56,846 nucleotides of DNA from IMG/VR virus record IMGVR_UViG_3300032046_003054, positions 1-56,846 of that record; one strand, 5' to 3'. Both the position numbers and the translations under genes were made by a program. The DNA is from a virus (taxonomy: Duplodnaviria; Caudoviricetes). Below, piece after piece: positions 1,017-17,697 of this stretch (positions are counted from its first letter, which is position 1; every line of letters starts with the position of its first letter). The notes under the pieces are model-generated. The model searched no databases and was not told the DNA's origin. It saw only the letters and a program-made list of their open reading frames with translations.

Positions 1017-1886
1017 TTATGTCCAGCATACTATCTCACAAACTTGATTTGCTGTTGGACTTTGAAAATAAATAGTTTTTCCAGTTAATTTTACCATATC
1101 TAAATGCATTGAAGCTCCGAATGGAATAGTTACATAATTACTACCGGATTCGTTAACCGTAAATGCCATTTTTAATAATGCATTAAGTGCTCTTAATTTT
1201 ACATCAATAATTCTTACATTATTTGGAAGTACCTGTGAATATTCTGTATCAGCCAAAGTCATTGAAACATTATAAATTGTTGGGGCTGATGCTAATTCCG
1301 TATTATCTTCTATTTCCTCCAGCTCATTCTCCGTTTTTGTTAAATCAATTCCAACTCCTCCTCCAAGATTAGTATTAAATTGTGCAGTATAAAAATATTT
1401 ACCATCTTTATCTACCAACCTTACTGGAATTGCTTCTGTGGTTTCTTTATTGCTCACAAAGGCGGAAATCGCCGCCTTTAATCTTGAAACAAGATTTTTT
1501 ATCGCTTCAACAATAATGGGCGAATCTGACTTAGGAAAATTCTTAACTTCTATCTTTTCTGGAAATTTCGGAATTTCAACTTTCGGAATTTCAATTTGGT
1601 TCTTAACAATTATTTCTTTGGTTTCACCCTCCTTTTTTATCAATTCATCTACCTTATTACATAATTCATCTATACTTTTTGCCTTTGAAACCTCCGTTAG
1701 ATATTTGCTTGTCAATATCTCATTTAAAGTTTTTCTTTCTTCTGAAAAAAATTTGGTCAGCTTTTCAATTGCCTCACCTATCTTTTTGTTTCCAATTTCT
1801 TCTGTCTTTTTTTCAGCATCCTTAACAACACCTCCAAGAATATCATCAAGACCTTTTTTTAATTTTTCTAAATCTTCTTTATTCAT
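1017..1886 (-). CDS. Hypothetical, probably virion-associated protein
   Basis: 289 aa, coiled-coil N-terminus and beta-rich C-terminus, overlaps the portal stop. Confidence 0.55.
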   Translation of the reverse strand: MNKEDLEKLKKGLDDILGGVVKDAEKKTEEIGNKKIGEAIEKLTKFFSEERKTLNEILTSKYLTEVSKAKSIDELCNKVDELIKKEGETKEIIVKNQIEIPKVEIPKFPEKIEVKNFPKSDSPIIVEAIKNLVSRLKAAISAFVSNKETTEAIPVRLVDKDGKYFYTAQFNTNLGGGVGIDLTKTENELEEIEDNTELASAPTIYNVSMTLADTEYSQVLPNNVRIIDVKLRALNALLKMAFTVNESGSNYVTIPFGASMHLDMVKLTGKTIYFQSPTANQVCEIVCWT

Positions 1887-4113
1887 CTTTTTCAGAGATT
1901 AAACTCTCCACTTTTTCTCTGGTTTTTTTTAATTTTTGTATTTCTTCATCCATCTCCATTTTTTTATCATCAATTTCATTTTTAATGTTTCTCTGACCAA
2001 TGATAGGAATTATCGTGCACCTGCAATTAACGTGGAGCGGGGGATATTGAACATTACCGTGAACAACATTTTTGAAACTTTCATCTAAATCAACAATCTC
2101 TCCGTCCATTGCCGCACATTCTTCGCAAGTTGCCTCATCAAAAGCAGTAAGCCATTCTTCTGCTTCTACCACACCCGACTGCCTGTATCCCTCTTCTGTT
2201 GCGAAATTAGTAGCCCTTGAAGTCTCCGTTCTCGCTATCCTGAAAGACCTTATTCCTTCGCAGTTGTCAAATACCTCGTTTATCCTTCCAGCAATCTTCC
2301 CAATACCTTCACCTTCCCTTATCCCCACTTCAAGTGCTTCTCTAATAAGTTTATTAGTATGCTCATTCACCTGTTGGGCAAATATAATAGGTTTCTTTTT
2401 AAGAAAAGAAATAATCTGGGCGGTAGCCATATCAAGACTTCCATTAATTCCAACATAGGTCAATGCCAATTTTCCTTCCTCTTTAAGTATCTCTTTAATC
2501 AAAGGGGTAAGAGATATCACAAATGTCGTGCTCTCGCTTGCCTCGTCAAGCAGAATGCTTGAGATATTTATTGCCTTTTCTTCCAAATGTCTGATAACCG
2601 CCCTTCTCTGAACCTCAAAAAGTTTCTTTAATTCAGTCCTAAATCTTCCCTCAAACTTTTCAGAAATATAAATCTGCTGTCTCCAAAATTTCTCTTCTTT
2701 TGACATCTCAATCTTCTCTTTTTTCTCTCCGTTCTTTTTCCTCTTATCAACCAGATAATCTCTAACAATCTTCCCTATCCCATCTTTTATAATTTTCATC
2801 TCCTTCCCCCTTCCGTGAATCTTTTTTAAGATATTCTTTCCTTTGATTGTTTTGCCTTCCGCTGGAGTATTGGGTTCTCCCAATGGCATCAAACTGAAGG
2901 GAATGTAAATCTGGTCTCCGCCATCAACGGGCTCCAAGCCTCTCTCCTTCCTCACCTCATTCCTTGTCATCCACCCGCCCGCAAGGGCAGAATCGTAAAC
3001 TTTCAGTTTGCTCTCCACATTTTCTGGAACTGGGTCTTCAAAATCAAGCCACAGATTGTCCCCGAACAAAGGGACAAAAAATTCGTTCAGTTGTTCAACT
3101 ATCCTCTTCATCTTGGGTTTTATCGTCCATCTGGCAAAGGCGTATGCCCCCGTCTCTGCGTTCGCCAAATTGACATTATCAGTAATTGCAATCACGGATT
3201 TTGGAACCCTGAAAATGGAAAGGATTTTGTCCCTTGTAAATCTTTGCTGTTCCAAAAAGTCCATATCCTTCTGCGATATCTGCATCGCCTGATAACTCAA
3301 ACCCTTCTCCAGTATCGCCATCTTCCCAGATTTTTTCATCCCCTTGAATTTCTTGTTCCACAAATCTTCAAGGTATTTTCTCTGCTCTTTTGTTAAAACT
3401 TGTTCTGTTTTTAAAATAGCATCTGGTCTTGCGGAATTGTACATAAATCTGAGGTTCCACTCTTCCGAATACTTGTCCAGATTAACCGTCTGTTCGGCGG
3501 CTTCAAGAGTCCCCCTTCCCCTCAATGGCTTTACGGGGTTGGGATATTTAATCAAAATTATATCGTCCTTTTCAAAACGCTCTTCTGTTCCATCGTCTTT
3601 TCTATACATATAATAATTAATCAGTCTTTCTCTATCATACTCTATTTTCAACCTGTCTGGTCTCAGCAAATAAATGGAAATTATCTCATCTCCATTTCTT
3701 TCCAAAGCCCAAGGTGCCTCTCCAGAAAGTTCAAGGTATTCCTGCGTCAACCAGAAATGGTCAAACTTGGTGGTAAAATCATTTACCCTGTATAAAACAT
3801 CCAGCAAAGGATGCTCAAAAGTTTCCTTCATCTCTCCACCACCGCCTATCTCGTACAAGTGAAATTCAATTGAGGCAATCTCGTCGCAAATAGCAGACAC
3901 ACAAGAATATACCCAGCCCGTTGCCGACTTTAAATAGTCTATTGGCATCATTCCTTGAGGCAATGTTTCATAAATCCCCTCGTAATCATCTGGTATTTCT
4001 TCCCAAGATACTGACTTCTTTTTAGATAATTTTTCTACTAAAACAATTGGTGCTTTTGAATAACCTAATTTCTCTAAAACGAAATTGACTGGTTTTAAAA
4101 ATGGATTTTCCAT
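1879..4113 (-). CDS. HK97-family portal fused to MuF/SPP1 gp7 minor head domain
   Basis: Portal motifs WVYSCVSAI, LRPDR, DMDFLEQQRF, GWMTRNEVR; MuF motifs RIARTET, WLTAFD..CEEC, PPLHVNCRC. Confidence 0.92.
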   Translation of the reverse strand: MENPFLKPVNFVLEKLGYSKAPIVLVEKLSKKKSVSWEEIPDDYEGIYETLPQGMMPIDYLKSATGWVYSCVSAICDEIASIEFHLYEIGGGGEMKETFEHPLLDVLYRVNDFTTKFDHFWLTQEYLELSGEAPWALERNGDEIISIYLLRPDRLKIEYDRERLINYYMYRKDDGTEERFEKDDIILIKYPNPVKPLRGRGTLEAAEQTVNLDKYSEEWNLRFMYNSARPDAILKTEQVLTKEQRKYLEDLWNKKFKGMKKSGKMAILEKGLSYQAMQISQKDMDFLEQQRFTRDKILSIFRVPKSVIAITDNVNLANAETGAYAFARWTIKPKMKRIVEQLNEFFVPLFGDNLWLDFEDPVPENVESKLKVYDSALAGGWMTRNEVRKERGLEPVDGGDQIYIPFSLMPLGEPNTPAEGKTIKGKNILKKIHGRGKEMKIIKDGIGKIVRDYLVDKRKKNGEKKEKIEMSKEEKFWRQQIYISEKFEGRFRTELKKLFEVQRRAVIRHLEEKAINISSILLDEASESTTFVISLTPLIKEILKEEGKLALTYVGINGSLDMATAQIISFLKKKPIIFAQQVNEHTNKLIREALEVGIREGEGIGKIAGRINEVFDNCEGIRSFRIARTETSRATNFATEEGYRQSGVVEAEEWLTAFDEATCEECAAMDGEIVDLDESFKNVVHGNVQYPPLHVNCRCTIIPIIGQRNIKNEIDDKKMEMDEEIQKLKKTREKVESLISEKDE

Positions 4114-4138: not shown

Positions 4139-4175
4139 AAAAAACCACAGATAAGCAATTGCTCACCTGCGGTTT
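4139..4175 (-). terminator. Intrinsic terminator-like hairpin in portal leader (copy A)
   Basis: AAACCGCAGGTGAGC-AATT-GCTTATCTGTGGTTT followed by U-tract. Confidence 0.8.
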
Positions 4176-4201
4176 CTCCGTAAGGCTTTGTATTATTTAA
4201 T

Positions 4202-4229
4202 ATTATAATTAATGAAGCGTGTGTGTCAA
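4202..4229 (-). promoter_or_regulatory. Sigma70-type promoter upstream of portal
   Basis: TTGACA-N16-TATAAT. Confidence 0.75.
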
Positions 4230-4235
4230 GCATTT

Positions 4236-4430
4236 TTAATCATTTGATAAACAAAAGGTTTCTTCAACTGTAATAATTTTTGGTTTTCCATTGTTGATTG
4301 TTATTTCCTTAACCTCTTTTTTATCAAAATAAATTTTGCCGAAGTTCATAACTTCAATCCTGTTAACAAGATTGTATAGTTCCCTATCGTACTTTTTTAA
4401 TATTATAATTTTCTCATTATCTTTTTCCAT
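4236..4430 (-). CDS. Small DUF2292/YezD-like protein
   Basis: 64 aa; helix followed by FGKI...EITINNGKP beta pattern; resemblance judged by eye. Confidence 0.45.
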   Translation of the reverse strand: MEKDNEKIIILKKYDRELYNLVNRIEVMNFGKIYFDKKEVKEITINNGKPKIITVEETFCLSND

Positions 4431-5271
4431 TTTTTATTTTTTCAATTAAATCTTGAAATTCTTTTATGCTCTGCTTGATATCCCATTTTTCTCTTACTTC
4501 TTTCAACCTCAACTCCGCCTCTTTTTTCCTTTCCTTTGGATTCAAAAATCTAATGACATCTTCTTTATTTCTGGCGACTGGCATCCCCAATGCCCAAGCG
4601 GTCAGGGTCTTGTTTGTTGATTTGAATTTTCCCCTCGGTCTGATGTCATCTGGCAACAAAACAAAATCGTGTTCAAGAATCACATCATTAAAACTCCACT
4701 CAGGATTTTCATACTCATATTTTACATTTACATCCGCCTTGATGTATGGCGGTCTGCAATCCGACAAAACCGTCAGTTCCAGATTAAGTTTCTTCAGCGT
4801 TGCAATCGTCGGGTCTAAAAGCTTGGCATTCTGCGAATAGCCAAACCATATTACTTTCTTCGCCTTTTCATCTGTGTGAACTTTCTGCTTGTTGTGGAAA
4901 CTCAAATCCTGCCTGTCTGGTATGAAAACAACGGGCTTGTCCGTGAACTGCTCTATCGCCTCTTTCAGCCCCTCGCTTGAAACTGTGACGGCATCGCAGT
5001 TGTCAATCACCTCTTTTATGGGAACTGTGTCCAGCCAATCTGCGTCACAAATATCCAGTATCTTTATCCCCTTGAATGCCTTAACATAATCCAACATATA
5101 CACCTTCTGAAAAATAATAGTTTCATATATAGCACCTTGCTGAAATAACTCCGCCTCCTCCCAGTTCCTGACATACCAATGACCCCTCAATCTTGAACTG
5201 CCTATTTCTTTACGATTATGAAATTGTTCAAATAAAAGTATCCCTATCGGTTTTTTGTTGTATATTGACAT
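4417..5271 (-). CDS. GT-B-like glycosyltransferase
   Basis: SSRLRG, IIFQK, ILDICD, VIWFGYS, KSTNKTLTAWALGMPV. Confidence 0.75.
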   Translation of the reverse strand: MSIYNKKPIGILLFEQFHNRKEIGSSRLRGHWYVRNWEEAELFQQGAIYETIIFQKVYMLDYVKAFKGIKILDICDADWLDTVPIKEVIDNCDAVTVSSEGLKEAIEQFTDKPVVFIPDRQDLSFHNKQKVHTDEKAKKVIWFGYSQNAKLLDPTIATLKKLNLELTVLSDCRPPYIKADVNVKYEYENPEWSFNDVILEHDFVLLPDDIRPRGKFKSTNKTLTAWALGMPVARNKEDVIRFLNPKERKKEAELRLKEVREKWDIKQSIKEFQDLIEKIKNGKR

Positions 5272-5273
5272 AA

Positions 5274-6346
5274 TTATATTTTCGTGTTTAATGCTTTTGA
5301 AATCAAATTTCGCCAGTCACTCTGGAAACGTTCCTTGCTAAATAATTTTAGAGCGGTCTCCTTTCCCCTCTGACCGATTTCCACCGCTTCCTTGTAATTG
5401 AATATGCACCACGCTATCTTTTTTGCGGCATCCTCTGGGTCATCCCTGCATATAAAACCATTGACCCCGTCTTCTATGAAAGTGTCGGCATCCTGATGCT
5501 TTGTTGAAACCACACAGCATCCGCTGAACATCGCCTCAGTCCTCGTCCTCGGCATTGGCGAGCCGATTGTCGGGTTGAAATACACCAGCGTCTTTGACAT
5601 AAAATCACGATACTCTTCAAAGGAAGCGAAGTTGGAGTCCTGTGCAATCCATATCATCTCTATCCCATATTTGTTTTTCAGAAGCTCTCTGGTTTCGTTA
5701 AAAAGGTTTCTCCCGTAATACTTCTCCCCGATACCTGCGGCAGAAATAAAGGTGGCACACCTCGGCTCCTTGACATTATCACGCCAGTCCTTCTCGTCCA
5801 GCCCGTGGATTATTGTCTGACCCCAGCCCCACTGCTCCCTCGCCTTGTGAGAATTGACCACCATCTCCCTGACATTCCTGTTGCTCTTGACAAGTTCCTC
5901 CATTTTCTTTTTAGCCCAGACCATTGAGTTCTCTTCTGTCGCCCCGTATCCGTCCAGAACACACATTTGCATAAACATTTCGGGGTAGACAGGCGTCCCG
6001 TGATTTATCACTATAATCGGGATATCATCTATCTGCTCCAAGAGTTGCCTGAAAAGTTTCGCCTTTCCCAGATGGAGAACAAGACACTGCTGGTCTGCGT
6101 GCAGAATTGCCAAGTCGTATTTCCCCTTCTCGTAATAAGGCGTCCACTTCAAGTGCGAAGGCATCATCCTCGCCCTGTTGTCCCACTTCCTTGTGTAGTT
6201 TATAAGATAAGTCCAGTCAATAAAGTCCATCTTCAAAAGTTCCGCCTGATGGGAAATATGCTTTTTCAGTGCCACGGAACTGAGAAGACCCTGATTTTTC
6301 GGGTTGGTAGTTCCGTGGCACTTTTTATATTATTATTTATTTCCAT
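5274..6346 (-). CDS. GT4 glycosyltransferase interrupted near the N-terminus (main ORF 5274-6275, upstream segment 6346-6266)
   Basis: EAMFSGCCVVS and IEDGVNGF GT4 motifs; first beta-strand KIRVFSVPWH lies in another frame ending in TGA. Confidence 0.8.
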
Positions 6347-6391
6347 ATTGTTTTGTTTAAAAATAATTTTTCCAATAATCTCTACGACCTT

Positions 6392-7138
6392 TTATTTTTC
6401 CGCTTTTTTAATATCCTCCTCCTGCCTCAAAAAGTTGCAATGCCGACACAATTCAATCTTCTCCCGCTCGCCCTTTCTCAGCCACTCCCTAATCTGCCTG
6501 AACTTCGGGCAGTTCCAGAGCTTGAGCACATCCTCGTCCATAACATTTCCAGCCACGGTCGTGTAGTAGTAATCGGAACAGCACAGCACCATATCGCCCA
6601 GATAGTTTATCATAACCTGTTGCAGTCCCTTGGGGCAGGGTCTCCTAACCAGAACATCGGGACCGACATCTATGTTTCCCCCACGGTTCATAAAAACCTT
6701 ATTCCTGTCCTGCTCAAAAATCTTTAGCAACCTGACACTGACCCCATCCTCCATATCCTTGAACCTTTTATATGTCTCCTCACGGTAGCAAGTAATCAAA
6801 ATCTGGCTCAGCCCCTTCTCAAAAAGCATACGCACATAATCTTGGTCAATGGCGATTCCGTTGCTCCCAATCATAATGGGATTGTCTGGGAATAATGCCC
6901 TTGTCCGCCTAATCCAATCTGGCAGACGCTTATCCAATGTCGGCTCGTTAAAGTCGTATGGCGAAATCCTGCCCCTGAAATCCATCTTCTTCAAGTCGTC
7001 CATTATCTTAAAGTAAATACGCTCCTCCATCAGCTCCCCGTGCTTCTCAATCTTTGAGTTGGGGCAGGTCGGGCAGTTGAGGTTGCACCCGTGATAGGTC
7101 TCAATTTGAATTATCTTAAACTCATCTAATTTAGTCAT
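6392..7138 (-). CDS. Radical SAM/SPASM-domain protein
   Basis: CNLNCPTC, FNEP, NRGG, INYLGDMVLCC, C-terminal CxxC. Confidence 0.92.
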   Translation of the reverse strand: MTKLDEFKIIQIETYHGCNLNCPTCPNSKIEKHGELMEERIYFKIMDDLKKMDFRGRISPYDFNEPTLDKRLPDWIRRTRALFPDNPIMIGSNGIAIDQDYVRMLFEKGLSQILITCYREETYKRFKDMEDGVSVRLLKIFEQDRNKVFMNRGGNIDVGPDVLVRRPCPKGLQQVMINYLGDMVLCCSDYYYTTVAGNVMDEDVLKLWNCPKFRQIREWLRKGEREKIELCRHCNFLRQEEDIKKAEK

Positions 7139-8712
7139 AATGTTTTGTCCCCGAACAATTTATAGTTTAACAATTTCGCCCGAATCATATCCTTCCTCTT
7201 TTGGGGCGTCATCTTGCTTGACCTCATTTCAGTCGCCTTGGCACTGGGAAGATATTCCAACTTGAAATCCTGCTCCCTATAACGGGTTCTCAGTTCCTGC
7301 GAAGCCCCGCCCCAAACATCTATCCTCTCATTGAACATCCCCGCCATAATCAGATGCTTCCTGCGGATGGCACTAAAATTCTCAACAAAACTCTTCTTGC
7401 CCCCCCCTTTTTCCCCGAAGAACCAAATCTTTTTTTCATCAGCCATAATGGCATCAACAAAATTTTTGACAGCATTTTTATCTGGGCAGAACCTGCTGTC
7501 ACAGAAAACCAGAATGTCTCCAATCGCCTCAACCACTCCCAGATTGCGAGCCATCGCCAGATTGTATCCCTCCCTTTCGGTGTATATCTGCTTGACCGTT
7601 ATCTTTGCATCAAAAATAATCTCCCTTTTTTCCACCTCATCCCAGACCACAACCGCCTCAATGTTCTTGTGCGTCTGCTCGGACAGGGCGTCAATGATTT
7701 TTCTGACCAAATCTTCCCTGTCATAAGTTGCTGGTATAATAACACTAACACAGGACTGGTCAGGAAACATCACGGAATTATAAAGTTTCTCATATTCCTT
7801 TGCCAAATACTGGGGCGTGAATCTCTTGACCGCCTGCCAACCATTATTTCTCAGCTTCTTCCTCAGCTCCAAATCCTCCATTGCCCTTTTGATTTTCTCC
7901 TTCATCTGCTCATAGTTTCCATACTCAAATAAAAGAACATCCCTCTCATCCTCAACAATATCCGCCGCCATACCGTTTGGCGTGGTCACCACAGGAACTC
8001 CGCAGGCAAGTGCCTCCAAGAAAGGGAGAGTGCCTCCTTCGTGGTCAGGTTCGCTGTTGCCGACATACAGGGCTATGCTCTTAAAAAAGTTAAGCCTCTG
8101 CTCGTCTGGGCACTGGTAGAAATCATACCTCATATTGTCCTTGTGCTCTTTTGGAATGCCATTCCAGTAGTCCAATTTGTCCAACTTTCCCATAATATAA
8201 AGCGGATATCCGAGTTCATAGCAAGCCCGAGCAATCTCCTTCAAGCCCTTCCACGGCACAACCCTTCCAGCATAACCCACCGCCATTTCCTTTGGCGAGT
8301 AGTCCTCAATCCATTCAAAGTAATCAAAGTCGGGGACATTCTCAATCTTCCTGACCCTCAAAGGATAAAGTTGATTCAGGGTGTTGTAATAGGCATTGGT
8401 CTTGACCACCAGAGCGTCAAAATCCTTCCACTTGTCCATCTGCTTATTTGGCATCGTATGATAAGTCAAAATCTTTTTTTTATCTTTTAATTCTGGTATT
8501 TTCTCGCAAAGTTGCCAAGCCACATTCCAATACTGGAAATCAACAATATCAACATCCTTGATTGCCTGCCTGATTTCTTCCAAGTGGTCTTCAATATCCC
8601 GTGGTGGACAATAAATAAGCTTCCACTCAATCTGTGGATTATACTTGCGGATGTAATTACACAACTGACCGATGCTCCAAGGTAAATCAGGAATTTGTAA
8701 AATTCTTAACAT
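7135..8712 (-). CDS. GT4 + GT2 bifunctional glycosyltransferase
   Basis: GYAGRVVPWKG, LEALACGVPV; then VSVIIPA, ARNLGV, ILVFCDS. Confidence 0.9.
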   Translation of the reverse strand: MLRILQIPDLPWSIGQLCNYIRKYNPQIEWKLIYCPPRDIEDHLEEIRQAIKDVDIVDFQYWNVAWQLCEKIPELKDKKKILTYHTMPNKQMDKWKDFDALVVKTNAYYNTLNQLYPLRVRKIENVPDFDYFEWIEDYSPKEMAVGYAGRVVPWKGLKEIARACYELGYPLYIMGKLDKLDYWNGIPKEHKDNMRYDFYQCPDEQRLNFFKSIALYVGNSEPDHEGGTLPFLEALACGVPVVTTPNGMAADIVEDERDVLLFEYGNYEQMKEKIKRAMEDLELRKKLRNNGWQAVKRFTPQYLAKEYEKLYNSVMFPDQSCVSVIIPATYDREDLVRKIIDALSEQTHKNIEAVVVWDEVEKREIIFDAKITVKQIYTEREGYNLAMARNLGVVEAIGDILVFCDSRFCPDKNAVKNFVDAIMADEKKIWFFGEKGGGKKSFVENFSAIRRKHLIMAGMFNERIDVWGGASQELRTRYREQDFKLEYLPSAKATEMRSSKMTPQKRKDMIRAKLLNYKLFGDKTL

Positions 8713-8923
8713 ATTTTTTAATCTTAATCCAAACTTTTTGATACCATTTCAATTTAATGATTTCAGATTCTTTGATTGTTTCGCTGATTGGCGAAACTTC
8801 TGGTGGCTTGTAAAACTTTATATTCTTGATTTCTTTCCTAATAACTCCAATATTGCTATCACATATTGCATGCATTCGTCCAGGAGTAATTCTAATTATT
8901 CTATAAATATCTACTTTTCGCAT
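8687..8923 (-). CDS. Hypothetical protein
   Basis: 78-aa ORF overlapping both neighbours in the operon. Confidence 0.5.
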   Translation of the reverse strand: MRKVDIYRIIRITPGRMHAICDSNIGVIRKEIKNIKFYKPPEVSPISETIKESEIIKLKWYQKVWIKIKKYVKNFTNS

Positions 8924-9468
8924 TCTACAATTATCTTATAAATGTTATCTTTGAACTTTATGTTCTTGAAACCAACATTTTTCAATTCTTCCTCCATTAT
9001 CTCTCTGGTAAAAATGTTCCTATGGTGGTCATAAGGATTTTTTGAAGCACCCGTAAAGCTGAAAAGCCAACGCACGGAATTTATCACCGCCTTCCCCTGA
9101 CACTTCTGACACTTCGGGTTGGCGACAAAACCTTCCTGACTTTCCGCTTTATGCGGAACGCATTCGCATATCTGCTTGTTGACATAATACTCCATCGCCT
9201 TTCCGCAGTCAGGAACCTGTATGTAAAGTGTGCCCCCATAATCCAAAATGCGATACCATTCTTTCAAAACCTTCGGGGTGTCCCTAAAAGACAAATGCTC
9301 CAAGAACTCTATTGCCACTATTTTATCTGCCTCATTATCTTTGGCGAATGGATAAGGAACATCCGTCAAATCGTAGACTATATCAACATTCCCCGCAATG
9401 TTGAGCGTGTCCACATTGACATAACCGCTTATTGATTTACGACCGCACCCGAAATTAAATTTCTTCAT
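8911..9468 (-). CDS. Class I SAM-dependent methyltransferase
   Basis: FNFGCG, YVNVD, EFLEHL, EWYRILDYGG.LYIQVPD. Confidence 0.88.
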   Translation of the reverse strand: MKKFNFGCGRKSISGYVNVDTLNIAGNVDIVYDLTDVPYPFAKDNEADKIVAIEFLEHLSFRDTPKVLKEWYRILDYGGTLYIQVPDCGKAMEYYVNKQICECVPHKAESQEGFVANPKCQKCQGKAVINSVRWLFSFTGASKNPYDHHRNIFTREIMEEELKNVGFKNIKFKDNIYKIIVECEK

Positions 9469-9591
9469 CTTCTAAAATCTCTTTAATTTTTTTAGTTATA
9501 TTTTCAGCAACATATTCTGCTCCTTTATTCCCGATTAAAACAATTGCCATTCCTGCTATCAAAGAATAAATTTGTTCTTCTTGTTCTTTTG

Positions 9592-10269
9592 TCATAATTC
9601 GCACAACATCTTCCAGCCGACTTTTCTCAATTCTTGAAAAGCCTGCTCTTTTTGCTGTTTGTATTTCTTATTTTCATTATCCCTATCTAGCAATAGCGTG
9701 CATCTCGGCTCTATTGAAATCAACCTGTATCCCCTCAATCTCGCCAAATAACTATGCCACAAATCATCAGCGTGATTATATCTTTGGTAAAAATTACTCT
9801 CAACCAACCTCGACTCAACCTCAAATAGACTGCGACCCCGCACGCTCCCGCCCCCGCCAATGTAATCAACCTCTGTTCCGTATGACAGTTTTATCGCCAG
9901 TTCCCCTCTATAACTTTTTGGATTCAGCAATTTTGAATACCAACCCAATACACATTTATCCCCAAACTTCAAATACTCCTTAAAATGATATTCAACGAAG
10001 TCAGGTGCCAAATCCTCATCGTCGTCAAAGCAAATAATAGGGTCTCCTTGCGTTTTATTTACCAAAGCCCACCTGTCCCCCGTCCCCACATTTTTTTCGC
10101 TGTTAAAGACCAATAAACGCTCTTTCGGGAAATCAATTTTTAATGCCTTTCCGCTATTATTCCAAATACTAACATTAAAATTGTCAATAGTTTGTTCCCT
10201 CAATTGCTTCATTATATCACCAATTCTGTCCCATCTTTTATAGATGGCGAAAATCACGTCAATTTCCAT
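9592..10269 (-). CDS. GT2/GT-A glycosyltransferase
   Basis: VIFAIYKR, ICFDDD (DxD), ADDLW. Confidence 0.8.
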   Translation of the reverse strand: MEIDVIFAIYKRWDRIGDIMKQLREQTIDNFNVSIWNNSGKALKIDFPKERLLVFNSEKNVGTGDRWALVNKTQGDPIICFDDDEDLAPDFVEYHFKEYLKFGDKCVLGWYSKLLNPKSYRGELAIKLSYGTEVDYIGGGGSVRGRSLFEVESRLVESNFYQRYNHADDLWHSYLARLRGYRLISIEPRCTLLLDRDNENKKYKQQKEQAFQELRKVGWKMLCEL

Positions 10270-10912
10270 TCCTTTTGTAAAAATAATGGTAAAGATGTTT
10301 GTAAATCTCCGACCTGTATTTATCTGCCAGAAACCTTTCTATCTTTTCCCCGTTCTCCTTTTTGTGTATCTCCATTGAAATCTGGCTTATCCTGTCAAAA
10401 ATCTCATTCGGACAATTAACCAATATCTCAAGTTCCGCATCCTCGCAGTCCATCTTTAAAAAATCGCACTTCTCTATCTTGTTATCAATGAAAATCTTTT
10501 CCAAAGAAATTATATTAACATATTCATATTCTTTCGGATTTTCTAAATATAAACTATGCCCCCCGTTGCAGTTTTCATCCTTAAAAAGTTGTGTCCTGTC
10601 AGAAGGCATTGAAGAAACCGCCAACTTAAAGCACTTTATTCTGTCTTCCAAATGGTTCAGCTTGATATTTTCAACCAGTATTTCATAGTTCTCTTTCTCT
10701 GGTTCAAAGGCATATATGGTCGCCCCTCTGCTGGCACACAAGATTGAAGTCCCCCCGATGTGGGCACCGATGTCAATTACGACTTTCGGCTCTTTCGGGA
10801 CTCTATATCTATCTAGTAATATCTCAACTCCACTCACAGTTTCCTTGTCAAAGATATCTCTGACTTTGAACTTTAACCCGTTGATTTCTATTTGCTCTGT
10901 TTGATTTCCCAT
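10259..10912 (-). CDS. FkbM-family methyltransferase
   Basis: VIDIGAHIG, YAFEP, FLKMDCEDAE, MEIH. Confidence 0.92.
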   Translation of the reverse strand: MGNQTEQIEINGLKFKVRDIFDKETVSGVEILLDRYRVPKEPKVVIDIGAHIGGTSILCASRGATIYAFEPEKENYEILVENIKLNHLEDRIKCFKLAVSSMPSDRTQLFKDENCNGGHSLYLENPKEYEYVNIISLEKIFIDNKIEKCDFLKMDCEDAELEILVNCPNEIFDRISQISMEIHKKENGEKIERFLADKYRSEIYKHLYHYFYKRNGN

Positions 10913-11496
10913 AAATATAACCCACCCTCTGGGTTGTCTATTATTTTATATTTCTCCATTATCAATTCCCTGAAATCCTTCTGCTGTTCTTTCGCCCCTT
11001 TCATATGCCCCGATTTGCTAAATCTTTCATCTCCAGTTTCATCATCTGGGATAAATGGATAACTCGTAGTCCACAAATACTTCACCTTCGCTTCTATGCA
11101 TTGTTTCAAGGTGTCAATGGGGCTTTCCAAATGGTCTAAAACCTCCCCGAAAATTATCAGGTCATAGTCAAAAGATTTTAACCCCTCTTCAATGCTGATA
11201 AAATTGCAATCAAGTTTATCCAATTCACACCTATATTTGACAAAATCAACATACATTTTGAAATCATAAAAAGTTGATTTAGCTCCGTTCTTAGCGAGCA
11301 GTATGCCGTAATCCCCGATACTGCAGCCGAAATCCAAAACCCTCAAGCCGAACATTTTATCTTTCAAGTTCTTCAAAACTATATTCGCTTCGTGATATCT
11401 GTCGTAGTCAATCATCATCCTCCTGATGTAGAAGTCCTTCTCCCCCTGATAGTTTTCACAGATATCCGTTCTTATTTTCTCTTCTTTTGGGGTCAT
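10888..11496 (-). CDS. Class I SAM-dependent methyltransferase
   Basis: VLDFGCSIG, YDLII.GEVLDHL. Confidence 0.88.
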   Translation of the reverse strand: MTPKEEKIRTDICENYQGEKDFYIRRMMIDYDRYHEANIVLKNLKDKMFGLRVLDFGCSIGDYGILLAKNGAKSTFYDFKMYVDFVKYRCELDKLDCNFISIEEGLKSFDYDLIIFGEVLDHLESPIDTLKQCIEAKVKYLWTTSYPFIPDDETGDERFSKSGHMKGAKEQQKDFRELIMEKYKIIDNPEGGLYLWEIKQSK

Positions 11497-12215
11497 TTTT
11501 TTATTAAATTAGGATAAACCTTTTCCCTGTATTTATTAAAGTGGAACATCGCAATCTCCTTCTCTGGCTGACAGGACATACAGATTAAAGAACCGTCTTT
11601 TTCCATCTTTAACTTTGGAGAATAATGATTTTCCATTCCATTATGGCAATGCCAAGAATAGAACTCTGTCTTAATCATACCATCTTTCATCGCCTTTTTA
11701 ACTACTCCACTAAAACCACCTGTTTCGTAATTTCTTTTATCGTAGTCATACTCGTCAAAATTGTGGTAAACAACATCCGAAAAAATCTTTTCCCAACCGA
11801 CATACTTCCTAAAAAGATTATTGACATTCTTATTGTTTCTCATTATGGAGAACATCCCGTTCATTGCCTTATCGTCCCCAGAAATAATATCGCACCTGCC
11901 CAATAGAGTATCTGTTATGAACCTGTCCAACCTGCCATATACAAGGTCAAAATTCGTGTATCCCCAGAAATCATAACCCTTGATATAATCCTCAAAGATA
12001 ACCCCGAATGCTGGTGCGAAATCGCAGGGCTTTGAGGTATACCCAGACAAATCTGGCTTTACTTCCGTCTTTTTTTCAATAAGCTCTGCAAAAATCGCCT
12101 TATCCCTGAATATCAGCCACTCAAAGCCATATTGCTTCAAGCCATTTATATTTTCCATATATTGGTCTAACCACTTCATCTCCCCAAAAAATGGCAGAAT
12201 AAATAGTGTTCTCAT
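11493..12215 (-). CDS. DUF6625-like putative glycosyltransferase
   Basis: LPFFG, KPCDFAPAFG.IFEDY, YDFWGYTNFDLVYG, FDE; start reassigned to MRTLF. Confidence 0.75.
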   Translation of the reverse strand: MRTLFILPFFGEMKWLDQYMENINGLKQYGFEWLIFRDKAIFAELIEKKTEVKPDLSGYTSKPCDFAPAFGVIFEDYIKGYDFWGYTNFDLVYGRLDRFITDTLLGRCDIISGDDKAMNGMFSIMRNNKNVNNLFRKYVGWEKIFSDVVYHNFDEYDYDKRNYETGGFSGVVKKAMKDGMIKTEFYSWHCHNGMENHYSPKLKMEKDGSLICMSCQPEKEIAMFHFNKYREKVYPNLIKK

Positions 12216-12796
12216 ATCTTTGTTGCCTTGACAAGGCATCCGATTTCATTATGTGCCTTGTATCCACTCATCGCCCTCATCTTATTTTTGCTGAAAAAAT
12301 CCATCAACATTTCCCCGTCCTCCGTTGTTCTCGGCTTCAACTCTTCTATCTTGAACCCAGCTTTTTCCATCAATTTTTCTACGCCCCATTTAGTCAACCT
12401 TATAAAATCCTGACCTTCGGGCTTGTGAACGGGATAGATAAAGTGTGTGGAAAAATATAAAATACCACCTTTTTTCAGCAACAGATTGATATTCTCCAAT
12501 GCCTGAACTATATTCCACAGGTATTCCGAAACTTCCAAACAGAATGCCACATCAAAATAATTCAAATAAGTTATGACATTGCTTTCACCCATTCCAACAT
12601 TCAAGTCGCAAACAATATCTGTCTTCTCGCCATTATGGGGGATTTCCAAATCCAATCCGACCAATTCTTTGACATTGAAACTTCTGGTTCTGTCTTTTAT
12701 GTTTTTTTTGTTTGAACCTGCATCCAAAACTTTGTCGCAATCCACATCAATTGTTTTCAACCACATTTCAAGTTGTTCTTTCGTTCCCAAAGACAT
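12212..12796 (-). CDS. Class I SAM-dependent methyltransferase
   Basis: VLDAGS, FDVAFCLEVSEY, LKKGGILY, DFIRLT. Confidence 0.85.
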   Translation of the reverse strand: MSLGTKEQLEMWLKTIDVDCDKVLDAGSNKKNIKDRTRSFNVKELVGLDLEIPHNGEKTDIVCDLNVGMGESNVITYLNYFDVAFCLEVSEYLWNIVQALENINLLLKKGGILYFSTHFIYPVHKPEGQDFIRLTKWGVEKLMEKAGFKIEELKPRTTEDGEMLMDFFSKNKMRAMSGYKAHNEIGCLVKATKI

Positions 12797-12807
12797 AATT
12801 TTATTTA

Positions 12808-13776
12808 TTAAAAATAACTTGCCTTTTTAATTCCGAATTTATCCTCTAACCAGCCGAACGCCCCATATCCTAACATATCTGGGGTCATCGCCTTTATCTT
12901 CTCCCTGATAATCTGCGGGTGCTTCTCCAACGGGACTGCCGTCTGCGGTCTTGCAAACTTCCCCAGTATCTCCTCCTTCAAAAAATCAGGAATGCCGTCC
13001 CTCTCAACATTTTCGCCAAGGTCTTTCATTTTTGATATTTTTATCCATTTATATTCCAAATTTTTCTGCTTTATGGTCGCCTTCAAGTTCCTATATCTCA
13101 ATTCCTTTACCGTCTCTATGTTTTGAAAGGTATAGTTATAGTTGTGTATGGTGGTAATGCTGTCATCAATCTCGCTCTTTGTGAACTTCTGCCCGAAGTT
13201 TATCCCGTTCTCAGTCAGTTTGTAAATTATCGGAATGTTCCCCCAACCGTGGCTGACCAAATCCACCCCCCACTTCACATTCAAACCCCTCTGCTTGCAG
13301 TTGTCCCTGAAAACAAGGAAAGGAGTCTGCTTTTTGATGTAATGCCTGTCCACTAAAATATAATTCAATCTGTTGTATTGCAAGATGCACTTCCCCCTTT
13401 TCGCCTTCAATTCGCAGTCCTCCCTGAAATTATACTTCTTGTTCACAATCCCCACACACTCTTCATCAAGAATGAAATCCACATCAAACTTGAAAACTGC
13501 GTCCCCCGTGCATTCCTCATACCCCCTGTTGAAGTTGTGGCTCATCCTTGAATAAAACCAGTCCTCCTCCCACTTTGTGTCCTCGTCGCAAACTATCCTG
13601 ATTTTGCTATCGCCTATGTCTTTAATCGCCTCTATAGTCCCATCCGTTGAGCCTCCGTCAATCACAACCAGTTCATCAACCACTGGAAGAAAACTCCTGA
13701 TGCTCTCAATGAAAGGATAGTTAAATTTCAGGGAATTGGTTGTAAGGCAAAAACCCGAGATTTTAAGACTACTCAT
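12808..13776 (-). CDS. GT2 glycosyltransferase
   Basis: VDELVVIDGGSTDGT, FKFDVD. Confidence 0.88.
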   Translation of the reverse strand: MSSLKISGFCLTTNSLKFNYPFIESIRSFLPVVDELVVIDGGSTDGTIEAIKDIGDSKIRIVCDEDTKWEEDWFYSRMSHNFNRGYEECTGDAVFKFDVDFILDEECVGIVNKKYNFREDCELKAKRGKCILQYNRLNYILVDRHYIKKQTPFLVFRDNCKQRGLNVKWGVDLVSHGWGNIPIIYKLTENGINFGQKFTKSEIDDSITTIHNYNYTFQNIETVKELRYRNLKATIKQKNLEYKWIKISKMKDLGENVERDGIPDFLKEEILGKFARPQTAVPLEKHPQIIREKIKAMTPDMLGYGAFGWLEDKFGIKKASYF

Positions 13777-14630
13777 AGTTTTTTGAATACCTCTAAATAA
13801 TTATCCCCCATCTCCTCCAAACTTATCACCCCTTTTTTTATCTGCTCTGGTATCCCACCGCCATCTTCTTCCCATAAAATCTCCGTCTCGCAGGCAAGTG
13901 CCTCGTTGACCACATTTGAGTTCGCTTCATTTGAAAAGGGACATAGAAGCACATCTGCCGACCTCATAATCTTTGCCAGTTCCCGCCTGTCCTCAACCAC
14001 GCCCCAGAACTTGTATCTCTTCTCCGCCCCGCCAAAAAGGTCAAAATTGTATTCAAGGTTCTCTGGGCTGAACTTCCCGACAATCCAAAGGTGTGCCTCT
14101 GGGTTGTGGAAGAATAACATCATAAAATCATACCACGCTTTCTCCCATCTCTTTGTCTCGTCCCTGCTTGAACGGACATATAGATATTGCGGATTTCCCT
14201 GTCTCAATATCGTTTCCCCCTCTGGCTTGAATATCTCGGTATCAACCCCGTTGAGAATCACCGCCCCGTCCCTCTTAACAAAGGGCATAATGAAACTCTT
14301 TGCCCACTCGGACTGGTAGACGATGGCGTCTGCTACCTGCGAAAAATCATATAATCTTGGAACTCCTGTGTTTCTATTGCGACTATTTCTCGGACAATTG
14401 TCAATACGAAGCACTACTTTCTTCCCCGCCTTTTTTGCCTCATAGACCTCATCCCTCTGAGCCATAGTAGGTCCCGTGATAAAATAAATATCGCAATCCT
14501 GCCACCTTTCTACAAAATCCACCTTGCCTTTCAGTGCCTTGATTATGTTTGAGGTGAACGACCAGCCCCCTCCAATAATTGAATCTTTGGCTTTTTGTGG
14601 AATAAAAATTCTCATTTTATTCTGTTTCAA
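13773..14630 (-). CDS. GT4 glycosyltransferase
   Basis: IIGGGWSF, ILNGVDTEIF, EANSNVVNEALAC. Confidence 0.9.
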   Translation of the reverse strand: MKQNKMRIFIPQKAKDSIIGGGWSFTSNIIKALKGKVDFVERWQDCDIYFITGPTMAQRDEVYEAKKAGKKVVLRIDNCPRNSRNRNTGVPRLYDFSQVADAIVYQSEWAKSFIMPFVKRDGAVILNGVDTEIFKPEGETILRQGNPQYLYVRSSRDETKRWEKAWYDFMMLFFHNPEAHLWIVGKFSPENLEYNFDLFGGAEKRYKFWGVVEDRRELAKIMRSADVLLCPFSNEANSNVVNEALACETEILWEEDGGGIPEQIKKGVISLEEMGDNYLEVFKKL

Positions 14631-14808
14631 AATTCTCTTCTAATACTTCAAATTTACATTTATATGCTCCAACTTTAATAAATTGGTAATTCTCCCCAGT
14701 CATTAATCTTTTTTGTCTTATGTGTGCAACAAGCATAGAAAATGTCATTTCAAATTCCTGTTCTAATTCTTTAATTTCAATAAGTTTTATCTTTTCTAAA
14801 TCTTTCAT
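14617..14808 (-). CDS. Hypothetical protein
   Basis: 63-aa ORF in operon. Confidence 0.5.
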   Translation of the reverse strand: MKDLEKIKLIEIKELEQEFEMTFSMLVAHIRQKRLMTGENYQFIKVGAYKCKFEVLEENFETE

Positions 14809-14812
14809 AACA

Positions 14813-15574
14813 TTATTTTATCTCGTAATAAGGAATATCCATCCTGCGAGGATATCCGATTTTTGTCATCTGTTCGTCCATATAAGCCAAGAAGTCCTCC
14901 AAGAACTCCCACTGGTGATACTTCTCCAATTCCCAGGAATGTGACCATGCTTCAAACCTCCCGCCCTCCTCAATCACCTCGTCAAACTTTGCCTTTGCAT
15001 ATTCCGTCCAAACAAGCAGGTTCGGCACCTTTTCATATTCTGTTATCTCACAACTGTTGACAATGTCGTATTTTCTAAATGGCATTATGTGAACAGTCGG
15101 TCTCGCCTCAAAAGGGTCTTTGGGAAAATCTATACAACCAGCCTTCACGGTTCTCGCCTCTAAAAAACCAGCCCTCTTGACCACTTCCTTGACCCTGTCG
15201 CTGAACCTGCCCCTCGGATAGCAGAACCTCCTGACCTCATAGTTCGGATTGATATTTGTCCTGATGACACTTTCCAGCATCTTCTTCCCCTCAACAATCT
15301 CGTATTCCAGCTCTTTGTCGGTAAGTTCGTTGAACTCCCTCGGGTGCGTGACGCTGTGTGCCCCAATCTCAAACAAGTCCTTCGTTATCTTGCACATCTC
15401 ACAGTTCGGCAGTGTGCCAGCCAACTGCCTGACCTGATGGTCTGACAAATCCCTCGCCTTAACTGGAATGTAGAATACCGCAGGTATCTTGTATTTAATC
15501 AGCATATCCGCAAGAGTGAGGTCAAGTTGGTCACCGTCGTCAAAACTCGCAAATATTTTTATTCTTTTTGACAT
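14813..15574 (-). CDS. Polysaccharide deacetylase (CE4/NodB-like)
   Basis: SFDDG, EIGAHSVTHP, FCYPRG, WSHSWE; likely start MSKRIK. Confidence 0.9.
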   Translation of the reverse strand: MSKRIKIFASFDDGDQLDLTLADMLIKYKIPAVFYIPVKARDLSDHQVRQLAGTLPNCEMCKITKDLFEIGAHSVTHPREFNELTDKELEYEIVEGKKMLESVIRTNINPNYEVRRFCYPRGRFSDRVKEVVKRAGFLEARTVKAGCIDFPKDPFEARPTVHIMPFRKYDIVNSCEITEYEKVPNLLVWTEYAKAKFDEVIEEGGRFEAWSHSWELEKYHQWEFLEDFLAYMDEQMTKIGYPRRMDIPYYEIK

Positions 15575-16065
15575 ATAAAATAATTTATCCAATAATTTCT
15601 ATTATGATTGGTTTTTAAATGACAATCATTACATAAAGTTATCAGATTATTCGGATTGCAATTCTTTTTATTATAATCTATATGATGAACGGTCAATTTT
15701 CTTCTTTCTTCTAATTCTGTTTTTCCACAAACTTTACATTTTCTTCTGTCCCTATTCCTGATGACTTCTTTCAAATCCTCATTAAACTCCAACCCGTATG
15801 GCTCAAAAGAGCTTCCATTATTCCAAAAGGGATGATTTTTTCCTTTCTTAAATTCTGATTTCGGATGATTTCCAATTTTAAATTCAGTTTTAGGAGAAGA
15901 ATGTTGACCTTTATGTGATTCTATCATTTTTTTTCTTGCTTCTTCTGTGGGTCTTCTTCCTATTGCTTTTTCTTTTATTTTATTTTTTGTTTCATCTGAA
16001 ACAATATGACCTTTTTGAAAGGTATAAGCGTTTTTGTATTTGGGATGTCCTTTTGGAAATGCCAT
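15559..16065 (-). CDS. Free-standing HNH homing endonuclease (NUMOD3-like N-terminus)
   Basis: IRNRD..CKVCG, VHHIDYNKKN...NLITLCNDCH. Confidence 0.92.
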   Translation of the reverse strand: MAFPKGHPKYKNAYTFQKGHIVSDETKNKIKEKAIGRRPTEEARKKMIESHKGQHSSPKTEFKIGNHPKSEFKKGKNHPFWNNGSSFEPYGLEFNEDLKEVIRNRDRRKCKVCGKTELEERRKLTVHHIDYNKKNCNPNNLITLCNDCHLKTNHNRNYWINYFICQKE

Positions 16066-16114
16066 ATTACCTTATTATAAACCAAAACAACACAAAAAGC
16101 AAAAAATGTCTATC

Positions 16115-16519
16115 TTAATTCTTTTTGGTTCCATAGATTTTCTTTGGCTCTCTTAATATTGCATCTATATCTTTAAGCATCTCTTCTTCGTTCAATGCCG
16201 AAGACAAACAATCATCTCTCTCCTTTTTCATAGAAACAACATCTGTTAAATCCTTTTCCTTCACTTTCAAACTGTTCTCCCATTGGACTATCAGTTCCCT
16301 GTCCTTATCCTTTCCTTTCAGTTTTTCGTTTGAGATGTCCTCCCTTATCTTAGTAATATCCTTTGTAAGAACTTCAATCGCCCCATCACCCCTAAATTCT
16401 ACAAATTTCTTGTTGAAGCGATAGGCGTCAAAATAGTGCCTTATGATATTGTCTATCCACTTTATCCTCGTTGCTTTTAATGCTCTTTTTATTTCTCTGT
16501 TGTTAAATTCTATTGGCAT
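16115..16519 (-). CDS. Hypothetical coiled-coil protein
   Basis: 134-aa ORF in operon. Confidence 0.55.
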   Translation of the reverse strand: MPIEFNNREIKRALKATRIKWIDNIIRHYFDAYRFNKKFVEFRGDGAIEVLTKDITKIREDISNEKLKGKDKDRELIVQWENSLKVKEKDLTDVVSMKKERDDCLSSALNEEEMLKDIDAILREPKKIYGTKKN

Positions 16520-17382
16520 AATTTTATAATTTCATTTTTAAATTTATGTCTGGGCTTCCAGCCGACCTTTTTGTCCGCCTTCCTGATATCCGCATAGCTG
16601 TATCGGACATCAACTTCGGGCATTGGAACCTCCCTCACTTTTAAATTCGGATATTTGCTCTTCACTATCTTTATCAATTTGTTCAATGTTATCACCTCCG
16701 AACCACCCAGATTGAAAGTCGCAAAATTATCCTTCGGCTCGTAGTCAATCAACTTAATTATTCCGTCCGCCAAATCATCAACGTGGGTATATCCCCTTGC
16801 CGACCTGCCGTCCCCGTATTTGACAAACTCCGTCCCTTTCCTGCCCGCCTCAATTAACTTTCTAACAACCATATCCTCCCTCCCGTTCTCCCCGTAAACG
16901 GTGAAAGGTCTGAAAACTATGACTGGAATCTTAGCACTGAACATCCTACAAACCATCTCTGCCCCCTTTTTACTAACAGCATAGGGCGACATCTGTGAAT
17001 TACATTCCATTGTTTCGCTTAAAGGCGAAACTTCATTGCCATAAACAGACGAGGAAGAGGCAAATAGGAACTTCTTTACCCCCGTCCTCAAAGCCCATTT
17101 CAAAAGCCAGTATGTCCCAGTTATATTAGTTTCAAAATACTGGTCTGGTATTTCAAGCGACTTCCTGACCCCCGCCAAAGCGGCAAGATGGATTACAATG
17201 TCTGGCTTGGCATTTTTCAAAACGCATTCAACATTATTTTCCTTTCTTATATCATCTAAAATGGCATCATTTTTTATATCCATTCCACAAACATCATACC
17301 CCAACTCCTTTAATCTTTTGAAAAGAACCCTACCGATAAACCCATCTGAACCTGTAATAATAATTTTATATTTTTCTGTCAT
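16510..17382 (-). CDS. NAD-dependent epimerase (UDP-glucuronate 4-epimerase-like)
   Basis: ITGSDGFIG, HLAALAGVR, ASSSSVYG, YAVSK, FTVYG..GREDM. Confidence 0.92.
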   Translation of the reverse strand: MTEKYKIIITGSDGFIGRVLFKRLKELGYDVCGMDIKNDAILDDIRKENNVECVLKNAKPDIVIHLAALAGVRKSLEIPDQYFETNITGTYWLLKWALRTGVKKFLFASSSSVYGNEVSPLSETMECNSQMSPYAVSKKGAEMVCRMFSAKIPVIVFRPFTVYGENGREDMVVRKLIEAGRKGTEFVKYGDGRSARGYTHVDDLADGIIKLIDYEPKDNFATFNLGGSEVITLNKLIKIVKSKYPNLKVREVPMPEVDVRYSYADIRKADKKVGWKPRHKFKNEIIKLCQ

Positions 17383-17579
17383 CTTAATTTCCTAAAAATT
17401 ATCCTGCCTATTTCCGACCTCTTAGGCAATTCAACTATTACCCTGTCCCCGACAATTATCTTTATCTTGTTTATCATCAGTTTGCCAGCAGTATAAACCC
17501 TTATCGTTATTCCACTATCTAACAGAACCTTGAATTGGGCATTTGGCAAACATTCTGAAATTGTTCCTTCAATTTTCAT
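17379..17579 (-). CDS. infA: Translation initiation factor IF-1
   Basis: EGTISECLPNAQFKVLLDSG...GKL..NKIKIIVGDRVIVEL...GRIIFR. Confidence 0.92.
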   Translation of the reverse strand: MKIEGTISECLPNAQFKVLLDSGITIRVYTAGKLMINKIKIIVGDRVIVELPKRSEIGRIIFRKLR

Positions 17580-17697
17580 TTCTTTGGTGGGTCATCACTT
17601 TCTAACTTTTTGTATTTCGGCTCTTTACCTATCTTGTTAATAATCCAAGCAATAAAGATAATGACAACCATTATTATAAAAATTATTACTATCATAT

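Follow-up and report, generated by a model that had tools for sequence, protein, structure and literature searches.

The stretch of DNA analyzed here (the window, 56,846 nucleotides (nt); the linear IMG/VR record IMGVR_UViG_3300032046_003054 of a tailed phage of the Caudoviricetes) carries two copies of a compact unit on its minus strand, copy A ahead of the portal gene and copy B ahead of the prohead protease and capsid genes. Each unit consists of a sigma-70-type promoter followed after 16 nt by the sequence CCTKACGGAG, a hairpin of 18-19 base pairs (bp), a T-run and a gene start. The best explanation of the whole, to which we give an even chance, is that these units are late-gene transcriptional gates opened by a phage protein, most likely the product of 64 amino acids (aa) encoded directly upstream of copy A. 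Taken separately, the reading of the units as regulated terminator gates is probable, and the assignment of the 64-aa protein as their factor we rate a little below even.

In copy A the order is TTGACA, 16 nt, TATAAT, 16 nt, CCTTACGGAG, the hairpin, six Ts and, 25 nt further on, the portal ATG, just as an initial annotation of the sequence had described it (promoter, 16 nt, motif, hairpin, U-tract, portal start). Copy B, which that annotation had placed at 52963-53056 with matching spacings, reads TTGACA, 16 nt, TATAAA, 16 nt, CCTGACGGAG, the hairpin, eight Ts and an ATG 17 nt on; the 16-nt promoter spacer and the 16 nt to the motif are indeed the same in both. The parts of the units, the genes behind them and the candidate regulator are as follows, with expectation values given as E.

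4202-4229, minus strand: promoter A, with the -35 TTGACA at 4229-4224, a 16-nt spacer and the -10 TATAAT at 4207-4202
4185-4176, minus strand: 10-mer A, 16 nt after the -10
4165-4186, minus strand: 5' hairpin A, a candidate antiterminator or protein operator, which contains the 10-mer and has a 4-bp outer tier, a 3-bp inner tier (CGG/CCG) and a 5-nt purine loop
4139-4178, minus strand: putative intrinsic terminator A, a hairpin and T6 run (4144-4139), with the portal ATG at 4113
1879-4113, minus strand: portal fused to an SPP1 gp7-like head morphogenesis domain (phrog_2662, E 2.6e-120; PF04860 and PF04233 on homologues), first gene behind gate A
53029-53056, minus strand: promoter B, with the -35 TTGACA at 53056-53051, a 16-nt spacer and the -10 TATAAA at 53034-53029
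53012-53003, minus strand: 10-mer B, 16 nt after the -10
52992-53013, minus strand: 5' hairpin B, which contains the 10-mer and has the same two-tier shape
52963-53006, minus strand: putative intrinsic terminator B, a hairpin (53006-52965) and T8 run, with the ATG at 52946
52946-52453, minus strand: HNH endonuclease (PHROGs), first gene behind gate B
52437-51361, minus strand: prohead protease (PHROGs), second gene behind gate B, with capsid, connector and tail genes next
4236-4430, minus strand: 64-aa protein of family S1 (family hidden Markov model (HMM), E 4e-24), last gene before gate A, overlapping a glycosyltransferase-like gene by 14 nt

Promoter A is the sole zero-mismatch site on the gene strand in a promoter scan, and terminators A and B are the strongest clean ones on that strand. 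The hairpin of terminator A comprises 18 pairs, including G-U pairs and an A/U extension, around a core of 14 bp, and has a folding free energy (dG) of -25.8 kcal/mol (z-score -5.8); that of terminator B has a dG of -22.9 kcal/mol (z-score -4.5), and in neither case did any of 200 shuffled sequences fold as well. Three compensatory pair changes distinguish the two hairpins, and both contain G-U pairs that are possible only in RNA of the gene strand. The exact 10-mer occurs twice in the window versus about 0.08 times expected from base composition, and four times versus 2.2 expected if one mismatch is allowed, which is not unusual by itself. A covariance model of the whole unit matches the gene strand of the window only at the two copies (E ~1e-14) and returns weak echoes of these hairpins on the opposite strand (E 0.03 and 0.32). 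The unit as a whole is not a product of chance. Rfam gave no match in the window at gathering score, and between 4090 and 4260 every match at E up to 10 lies far under its own gathering score. Intergenic promoters of like type at 35533, 31822, 39639 and 50590 have no terminator behind them, from which we conclude that the gates are specific to virion genes.

A -10-like hexamer lies 6 nt past the -10 in both copies (TAATAC at 4196-4191 in A and TAATCT at 53022-53017 in B, minus strand). It recurs in four loci around related portals (L122, L093, L007 and L038), and the surrounding DNA is AT-rich; the hexamer may mark the region of the start site or serve as a sigma-dependent pause element.

The initial annotation had taken the linear sequence CCUKACGGAG as the binding site of the regulator. 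The sequence does lie within a conserved element, but the 10-mer covers only half of an RNA hairpin and, judging from the comparison of related leaders, makes more sense as the 5' half of a small hairpin whose pairs covary. The shape of this 5' hairpin is common to both copies (dG -6.0 kcal/mol in A, -7.7 kcal/mol in B), and the 3' strand of its inner helix is the foot of the terminator, i.e., the start of the terminator 5' arm; in the closest subclade of related phages, the conserved block runs beyond the 10-mer into this foot. In a MAFFT alignment of 14 leaders chosen by clade only, 92.9% of the inner-helix cells are paired, two of the three pairs change on both sides, and the covariation score is reached by none of 500 shuffles. 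The pair sets observed are CGG/CCG, TGG/CCA, CCG/CGG and CAG/CTG, with CGA/TCG and AAG/CTT in second copies. Protein-dependent antitermination systems (RAT/LicT, HutP) have a weak 5' hairpin in competition with a strong terminator; A and B fit this layout in that the alternative hairpin shares a strand with the terminator 5' arm. The overlap of an RNA hairpin with the terminator, together with a separate copy at each gate, points to local antitermination of the RAT/HutP kind.

Other readings of the leader were considered and set aside. A 9-codon GTG frame follows GGAG in copy A and could be taken for a leader peptide, but at that place copy B lacks a start codon. Neither a CsrA-type GGA site nor a riboswitch of the preQ1 or guanidine-II class finds support in Rfam, and the GGA is missing from some subclades.

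The anatomy of the units, its conservation, the covariation, the synteny and the likeness to bacterial DUF2292 genes are observed; we infer that transcription ends at the hairpin, that the 64-aa protein binds RNA and which way it acts. The gate could then work as follows. The near-consensus host-type promoter would fire, and about 10 nt into the transcript the small two-tier hairpin would form. As the polymerase advances, the 3' strand of this hairpin would be pulled into the far stronger intrinsic terminator and transcription would stop about 60 nt from its start, just ahead of the gene. A phage protein would bind and hold the small hairpin, with its flanks (approximately C-Y-N-A 5' and R-G-G 3') as part of the site. 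The lowest pairs of the terminator would then fail to form, and the polymerase would read through into the portal genes at gate A and into the protease and capsid genes at gate B. The opener would most likely be the 64-aa product of 4236-4430 and, with its gene the last in a long preceding block, it would act as a timer.

Metagenomes contain hundreds of portal homologues. We took 160 loci around such portals, labeled here with L numbers, and 116 distinct loci with at least 200 nt upstream of the portal form the counted set. Scored as a hairpin with a dG of -10 or lower and a T-run within 45 nt of the portal start, a gate is present in 72 of the 116, and a permissive promoter pattern lies upstream in 35 of these 72. 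In many relatives the ATG follows just 4-10 nt past the T-run. The exact 10-mer occurs in none of the 160 loci, which implies that the element is conserved as a structure and not as a 10-mer. An alignment of eight terminators, fitted to the model, is paired in 92.5% of cells; 8 of 15 pairs change on both sides and no shuffle out of 500 reaches the score. A search of viral contigs for the exact promoter and motif pattern returned six loci (three independent sequences), none with a hairpin, which we attribute to chance or ordinary ribosome-binding sites.

Second gates recur as well. In L038, a 58.5-kb contig whose portal is 54% identical, nearly the same leader stands before the portal and directly before the prohead protease, which are the two positions seen in the window, and there is no HNH gene there. 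L114 and L122 have a second hairpin-terminator before the protease-capsid gene, and L018 has a second motif-terminator after the portal. The comparison of the portal loci, and L038 with both of its gates, support the promoter-leader-terminator gate of the initial annotation as a conserved unit ahead of structural genes. These positions bear on the alternative of a mobile promoter-terminator cassette, similar to the promoter-stem-loop cassettes of T4-type phages, which would have multiplied within the genome without serving as a switch. Such spread would account for two near-identical copies in one genome and for a homing-type HNH gene next to copy B. It would not account for the same two positions in L038, where the HNH gene is missing, nor for copies that differ by compensatory changes, unlike recent duplicates, and the model found no further copies; we regard it as highly improbable.

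The main argument for the 64-aa protein as the gate factor is a pattern of family replacement upstream of the gate. In the window, the stop codon of the 64-aa gene lies 6 nt before the -35, in agreement with the initial annotation, which had it ending just upstream. Among the 116 loci, the open reading frame (ORF) directly upstream of the gate belongs to S1 in 20, to S2, a Com-like zinc ribbon of 56-89 aa, in 21, and to S3, a Mu Com-type zinc ribbon, in 13 (the S3 member of L019 passes Pfam Zn_ribbon_Com, PF10122, with 25.2 bits); in about 40 further loci a terminase gene takes this place. The six frames of the window hold no S2 or S3 homologue. Leaders next to S1 have hairpins of an ACGG-purine type, those next to S2 have TTACGA-type hairpin loops (CTTACG in 10 of 21 versus 0.33 expected), and those next to S3 have ACTACG (8 of 13 versus 0.23 expected). 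The leader motif tracks the small-protein family: three unrelated or distant small proteins alternate at one position, each with its own RNA motif, and one of the three is related to Com of phage Mu, a known leader-binding protein.

Co-occurrence of motif and gene in relatives, which the initial annotation had suggested as a check, was found. With the family HMMs, gate and small protein occur together in 49 of the 116 loci and are both missing from 34, while 23 loci have a gate without the protein and 10 the protein without a gate (odds ratio 7.2, Fisher 3e-6, relatedness not corrected); some of the 10 protein-only loci reflect wrong start codons, and L009 and L010 do have gates. Outside the window, a model built from the two copies matches six loci at E <=0.05, with an S1 gene within 212 nt of the portal start in five and none in L014.

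A unit that needs no factor would be an attenuator with a fixed dose of read-through, or a gene for a trans-acting RNA of about 60 nt, and the small protein would be unrelated to it. This is hard to reconcile with a motif type that changes with the neighboring protein family, with a conserved covarying hairpin that overlaps the terminator, or with the placement of the unit, which is always directly ahead of a virion-gene start codon; a strong terminator before the abundantly needed capsid also argues against simple dose reduction. Promoter and terminator are nevertheless already complete as a small RNA gene, for which the 6S RNA of lambda is a precedent; gate B has no small protein gene beside it, and the 23 gate-only loci show none in the sequence examined. 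We give this explanation little probability.

The resemblance of the 64-aa protein to DUF2292/YezD, proposed in the initial annotation, holds at the level of the family and not for the protein alone, which stays below the DUF2292 (PF10055) gathering cut-off of 22 bits. DUF2292 matches occur in 2 of the 10 closest family members (best E 8e-4); the S1 members of L154 and L074 pass with 29.3 and 25.8 bits, and that of L125 comes near the cut-off. S1 and DUF2292 share a fold-family signature ([YF]G, beta strand, G-x-P), the window protein having an 8-residue insertion relative to DUF2292. The proposed homology of the window protein to the members that pass is based on blastp single linkage at E 1e-5 and a coherent alignment of 40 sequences.

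Bacterial DUF2292 genes show a parallel arrangement. Our sample comprises 14 loci (L220-L233), nine from 201 genomes of one phylum and five from 301 Patescibacteria genomes. A GACC-stem-loop-GGAGG hairpin lies at most ~100 nt downstream on the same strand in 9 of the 14; it lies further downstream in three, on the other strand in one, and is absent from one. In L221, L225, L229, L230, L231 and L233 a terminator-type hairpin comes directly after the motif, followed by a T-run in five of the six and by the start of one in L225. L230 has the phage layout, with a DUF2292 gene, a TTGACA-17-TAAATT promoter, the hairpin, the terminator and an ATG 3 nt on. Phage L154 bridges the two sets: its S1 protein scores above the DUF2292 cut-off, and the hairpin in its leader combines the bacterial flanks with an overlap with the terminator. 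The phage hairpin follows the bacterial plan (C-Y-N-A flank, stem, A-first loop, stem, R-G-G). Rfam returned no matches in seven of the bacterial DUF2292 loci and L154. In L224 and L227 the GGAGG of the motif lies 6-7 nt ahead of a start codon, so the element may act on translation in one operon and on termination in another. In the literature searched, judged without full texts, no description of a function for DUF2292/YezD was found. We put forward tentatively, as an idea rather more doubtful than the gates themselves, that DUF2292/YezD proteins may be widespread small RNA-binding antiterminators acting on hairpin-terminators, used on bacterial operons and recruited by phages of the candidate phyla radiation as a late timer, interchangeable with Com-like zinc ribbons of equal function in sister phages.

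Several results weigh against a gate opened by the 64-aa protein through the 5' hairpin. Folded alone, the 5' hairpins of A and B have z-scores of about -1.9, so their stability is not significant, and the inner helix has three pairs only; a separate alignment with 100% pairing carries no weight because its rows were picked by their pairing pattern. The 64-aa protein itself matches no Pfam family, DUF2292 included, at E up to 0.05 or up to 1, and has no relative in PDB and neither a model nor a feature match in the ESM Atlas. S1 proteins are near neutral (median isoelectric point 6.8, n=40), whereas S2 (9.1) and S3 (8.8) are basic. No S1 gene adjoins gate B, although one factor could serve both gates; a terminase gene lies between S1 and the gate in L093, and the 23 gate-only loci have no small protein in the locus sequence examined. 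The co-occurrence p-value overstates independence because related phages share gene and motif by descent. On the bacterial side, neither copy A nor copy B is found by a model of the bacterial motif at E up to 10, and the phage-hairpin model, run on the 14 bacterial loci, has a motif instance as its best match at an E of 0.34, with 4 of 15 matches on motif instances. A shared descriptor matches only copies A and B on the gene strand of the window; in the bacterial set it matches 8 of 14 loci at the motif and one more elsewhere (background 0.12% per 120 nt), but it was composed after both sets had been seen, and the result is suggestive but circular. The claim of the initial annotation that the 64-aa protein is an antiterminator is kept in part: by co-occurrence and synteny it is the best candidate, but by itself it has no Pfam match.

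The close spacing of T-run and ATG in many relatives raises the question of translation. Delivery of a Shine-Dalgarno sequence by the hairpin, as in T4 genes 38 and 25, was set aside for the window, whose ATGs are at distances of 25 and 17 nt, in a host that makes little use of such sites; it is possible in relatives whose ATG closely trails the T-run. A translational switch of the Mu Com/mom kind would make the hairpin and U-run an operator through which the small protein turns translation of the portal and head genes up or down, with no effect on termination. A hairpin with a T-run is, however, a canonical intrinsic terminator, here with the start codon outside it, and in the window that codon lies 25 nt (A) or 17 nt (B) past the T-run; a promoter directly upstream of a terminator is also hard to explain by translation alone. 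These features make the switch unlikely to us in spite of the Com-like zinc ribbons at the same position in cousins (Com is a translational activator in the portion of PMC6483171 consulted), the ATGs 4-10 nt past the T-run in relatives, the GGAGG 6-7 nt before the start codon in the bacterial loci L224 and L227, and the lack of Shine-Dalgarno sequences in most genes of this phage.

The record is estimated to be 67% complete and has a G+C content of 38%; all credible genes are on the minus strand. Replication genes were also identified in the window (PHROGs, Pfam), and the further features that frame the gates are listed below.

~52.4 to 39.1 kb, minus strand: prohead protease, capsid, connector, tail, tape measure and lysis genes (PHROGs, Pfam)
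20148-21320, minus strand: large terminase (PHROGs, Pfam)
4417-5271, minus strand: 284-aa GT1-like protein (ESM Atlas), of a family found upstream of S1 or S2 in 34 related loci

A 15-kb island (4417-19665, minus strand) separates the terminase from the small protein and portal. It contains glycosyltransferases, methyltransferases, a radical-SAM-like protein and sugar-nucleotide enzymes, and virion or DNA glycosylation is a possible role. Between two of its transferase genes, a 116-nt gap (6276-6391) is filled by a hairpin with a dG of -33.5 kcal/mol on the plus strand followed by a T-run. Few genes of this phage have a Shine-Dalgarno sequence, which makes a 66-aa homologue of translation initiation factor IF-1 at 17379-17579 (minus strand; Pfam eIF-1a, E 7e-16) notable. 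A 127-aa protein at 26567-26950 (minus strand) has sigma-70 region 4 as its sole domain (Pfam E 1.7e-10) and could be a late activator or the small terminase.

The major capsid gene (49253-51364) is interrupted, with its N-terminal part at 50681-51364 and its C-terminal part at 49253-49816 (minus strand); an HNH endonuclease gene at 49905-50555 lies between the parts and has its own TTGACA-17-TAAAAT promoter at 50590. The interruption looks like an intron or other mobile insertion; no Rfam intron matches there at E up to 1, and the capsid gene of L038 is uninterrupted. A perfect TTGACA-17-TATAAT promoter at 39027-39055 is on the plus strand, opposite to all genes, and adjoins the minus-strand terminators at 38989 and 38812 where the late region ends, so that antisense transcription could run into the lysis and tail genes.

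Portal relatives in binned genomes point to the hosts. The bins of L168 (Magasanikbacteria, portal at 46%), L169 (a 386-kb contig, 40%) and L171 (Shapirobacteria) carry labels of the Patescibacteria group, and that of L167 (59%) is labeled as an archaeon. From the bin labels of the nearest portals, which can be wrong, the hosts are likely bacteria of the candidate phyla radiation (Patescibacteria). To our knowledge, the timing of late genes has been worked out in few phages and in none with a Patescibacteria host, and in the literature searched, judged without full texts, we found no account of such a gate. If the proposed mechanism is correct, a whole phage clade would time virion production by a small protein and a hairpin of about 25 nt fused to a terminator, with the protein component of the module swapped between unrelated families. 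It would provide a first function for DUF2292/YezD and would extend the known antitermination systems by a protein-RNA switch that is compact and portable.

Among these systems, late control in lambda (the Q gene, pR', qut, 6S RNA and tR') is the one with which the initial annotation had compared the unit. The analogy stands for the logic, in which a strong constitutive promoter runs at once into a terminator ahead of the late genes, the gene of the candidate regulator comes directly before the promoter and a short RNA of about 60 nt would result. It does not stand for the anatomy: the lambda site is DNA between -35 and -10 and here it would be an RNA hairpin, two or more gates per genome each have their own site, and, as the initial annotation had stated, no Q- or N-like gene is recognizable (none among 96 ORFs with PHROGs or 33 with Pfam). 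The same comparison bears on processive antitermination of the lambda Q kind, in which an unrecognized protein binding DNA or RNA polymerase would load at a sigma-dependent promoter-proximal pause and render the polymerase resistant to terminators. The 16 nt between promoter and motif in both copies, the -10-like hexamer that A, B, L122, L093, L007 and L038 have 6 nt past the -10, and the position of the candidate regulator directly upstream of the promoter, as for lambda Q, would all suit it. The conserved element, however, covaries as RNA and overlaps the terminator, the Q and N families are missing from the ORFs searched, and L038 and L114 have a second gate with its own motif a few kb downstream, which a processive system would not need. 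We judge this mechanism quite improbable.

The boxB hairpin of the nut sites read by lambda N is, like the 5' hairpin, small, has a purine-rich 5-nt loop and lies near the leader 5' end, with two sites per genome, and a small phage protein reads it to pass terminators, as proposed here. The present gates differ in having neither an arginine-rich peptide nor a boxA, in a hairpin that overlaps the terminator, and in that nothing suggests processive action.

With Com and mom of phage Mu, the parallel lies in a tiny protein encoded just upstream of the gene that it regulates and in a motif beside an inhibitory structure, at least in the part of PMC6483171 consulted, where the Com site, CC(N)2-3GAG in the loop of a hairpin, lies in the leader of mom, the gene that follows. 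That part also shows the hexamer ACGGAG in the mom leader, as in the window motif, and related phages have Com-like zinc ribbons in place of the 64-aa gene. The systems differ in that the window has no Com-like protein, that its motif is CC(N)5GAG instead of Com's CC(N)2-3GAG, and that the inhibitory structure is a terminator here and a start-codon hairpin in mom.

For bacterial DUF2292/YezD (PF10055), the differences are a window protein under the Pfam cut-off with an 8-residue insertion, and a bacterial motif model that misses the phage copies; the likenesses are the shared signature and a small hairpin with C-Y-N-A and R-G-G flanks after the gene, in several loci followed by a terminator and the next gene.

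In BglG/SacY/LicT with RAT, and in HutP with the hut leader of Bacillus subtilis, an antiterminator hairpin overlaps the terminator. The 64-aa protein, distantly related to DUF2292, belongs to neither the CAT/PRD nor the HutP family (Pfam, PDB), at 3+4 pairs the hairpin here is far smaller, nothing points to an input by a ligand or by phosphorylation, and the setting is that of phage late genes. What the gates would share with RAT and HutP is a weak 5' hairpin whose 3' strand is also part of a strong terminator and a local action with one site per terminator; with HutP they share, in addition, the position of the regulator gene directly upstream of the terminator, in the order hutP-terminator-hutH.

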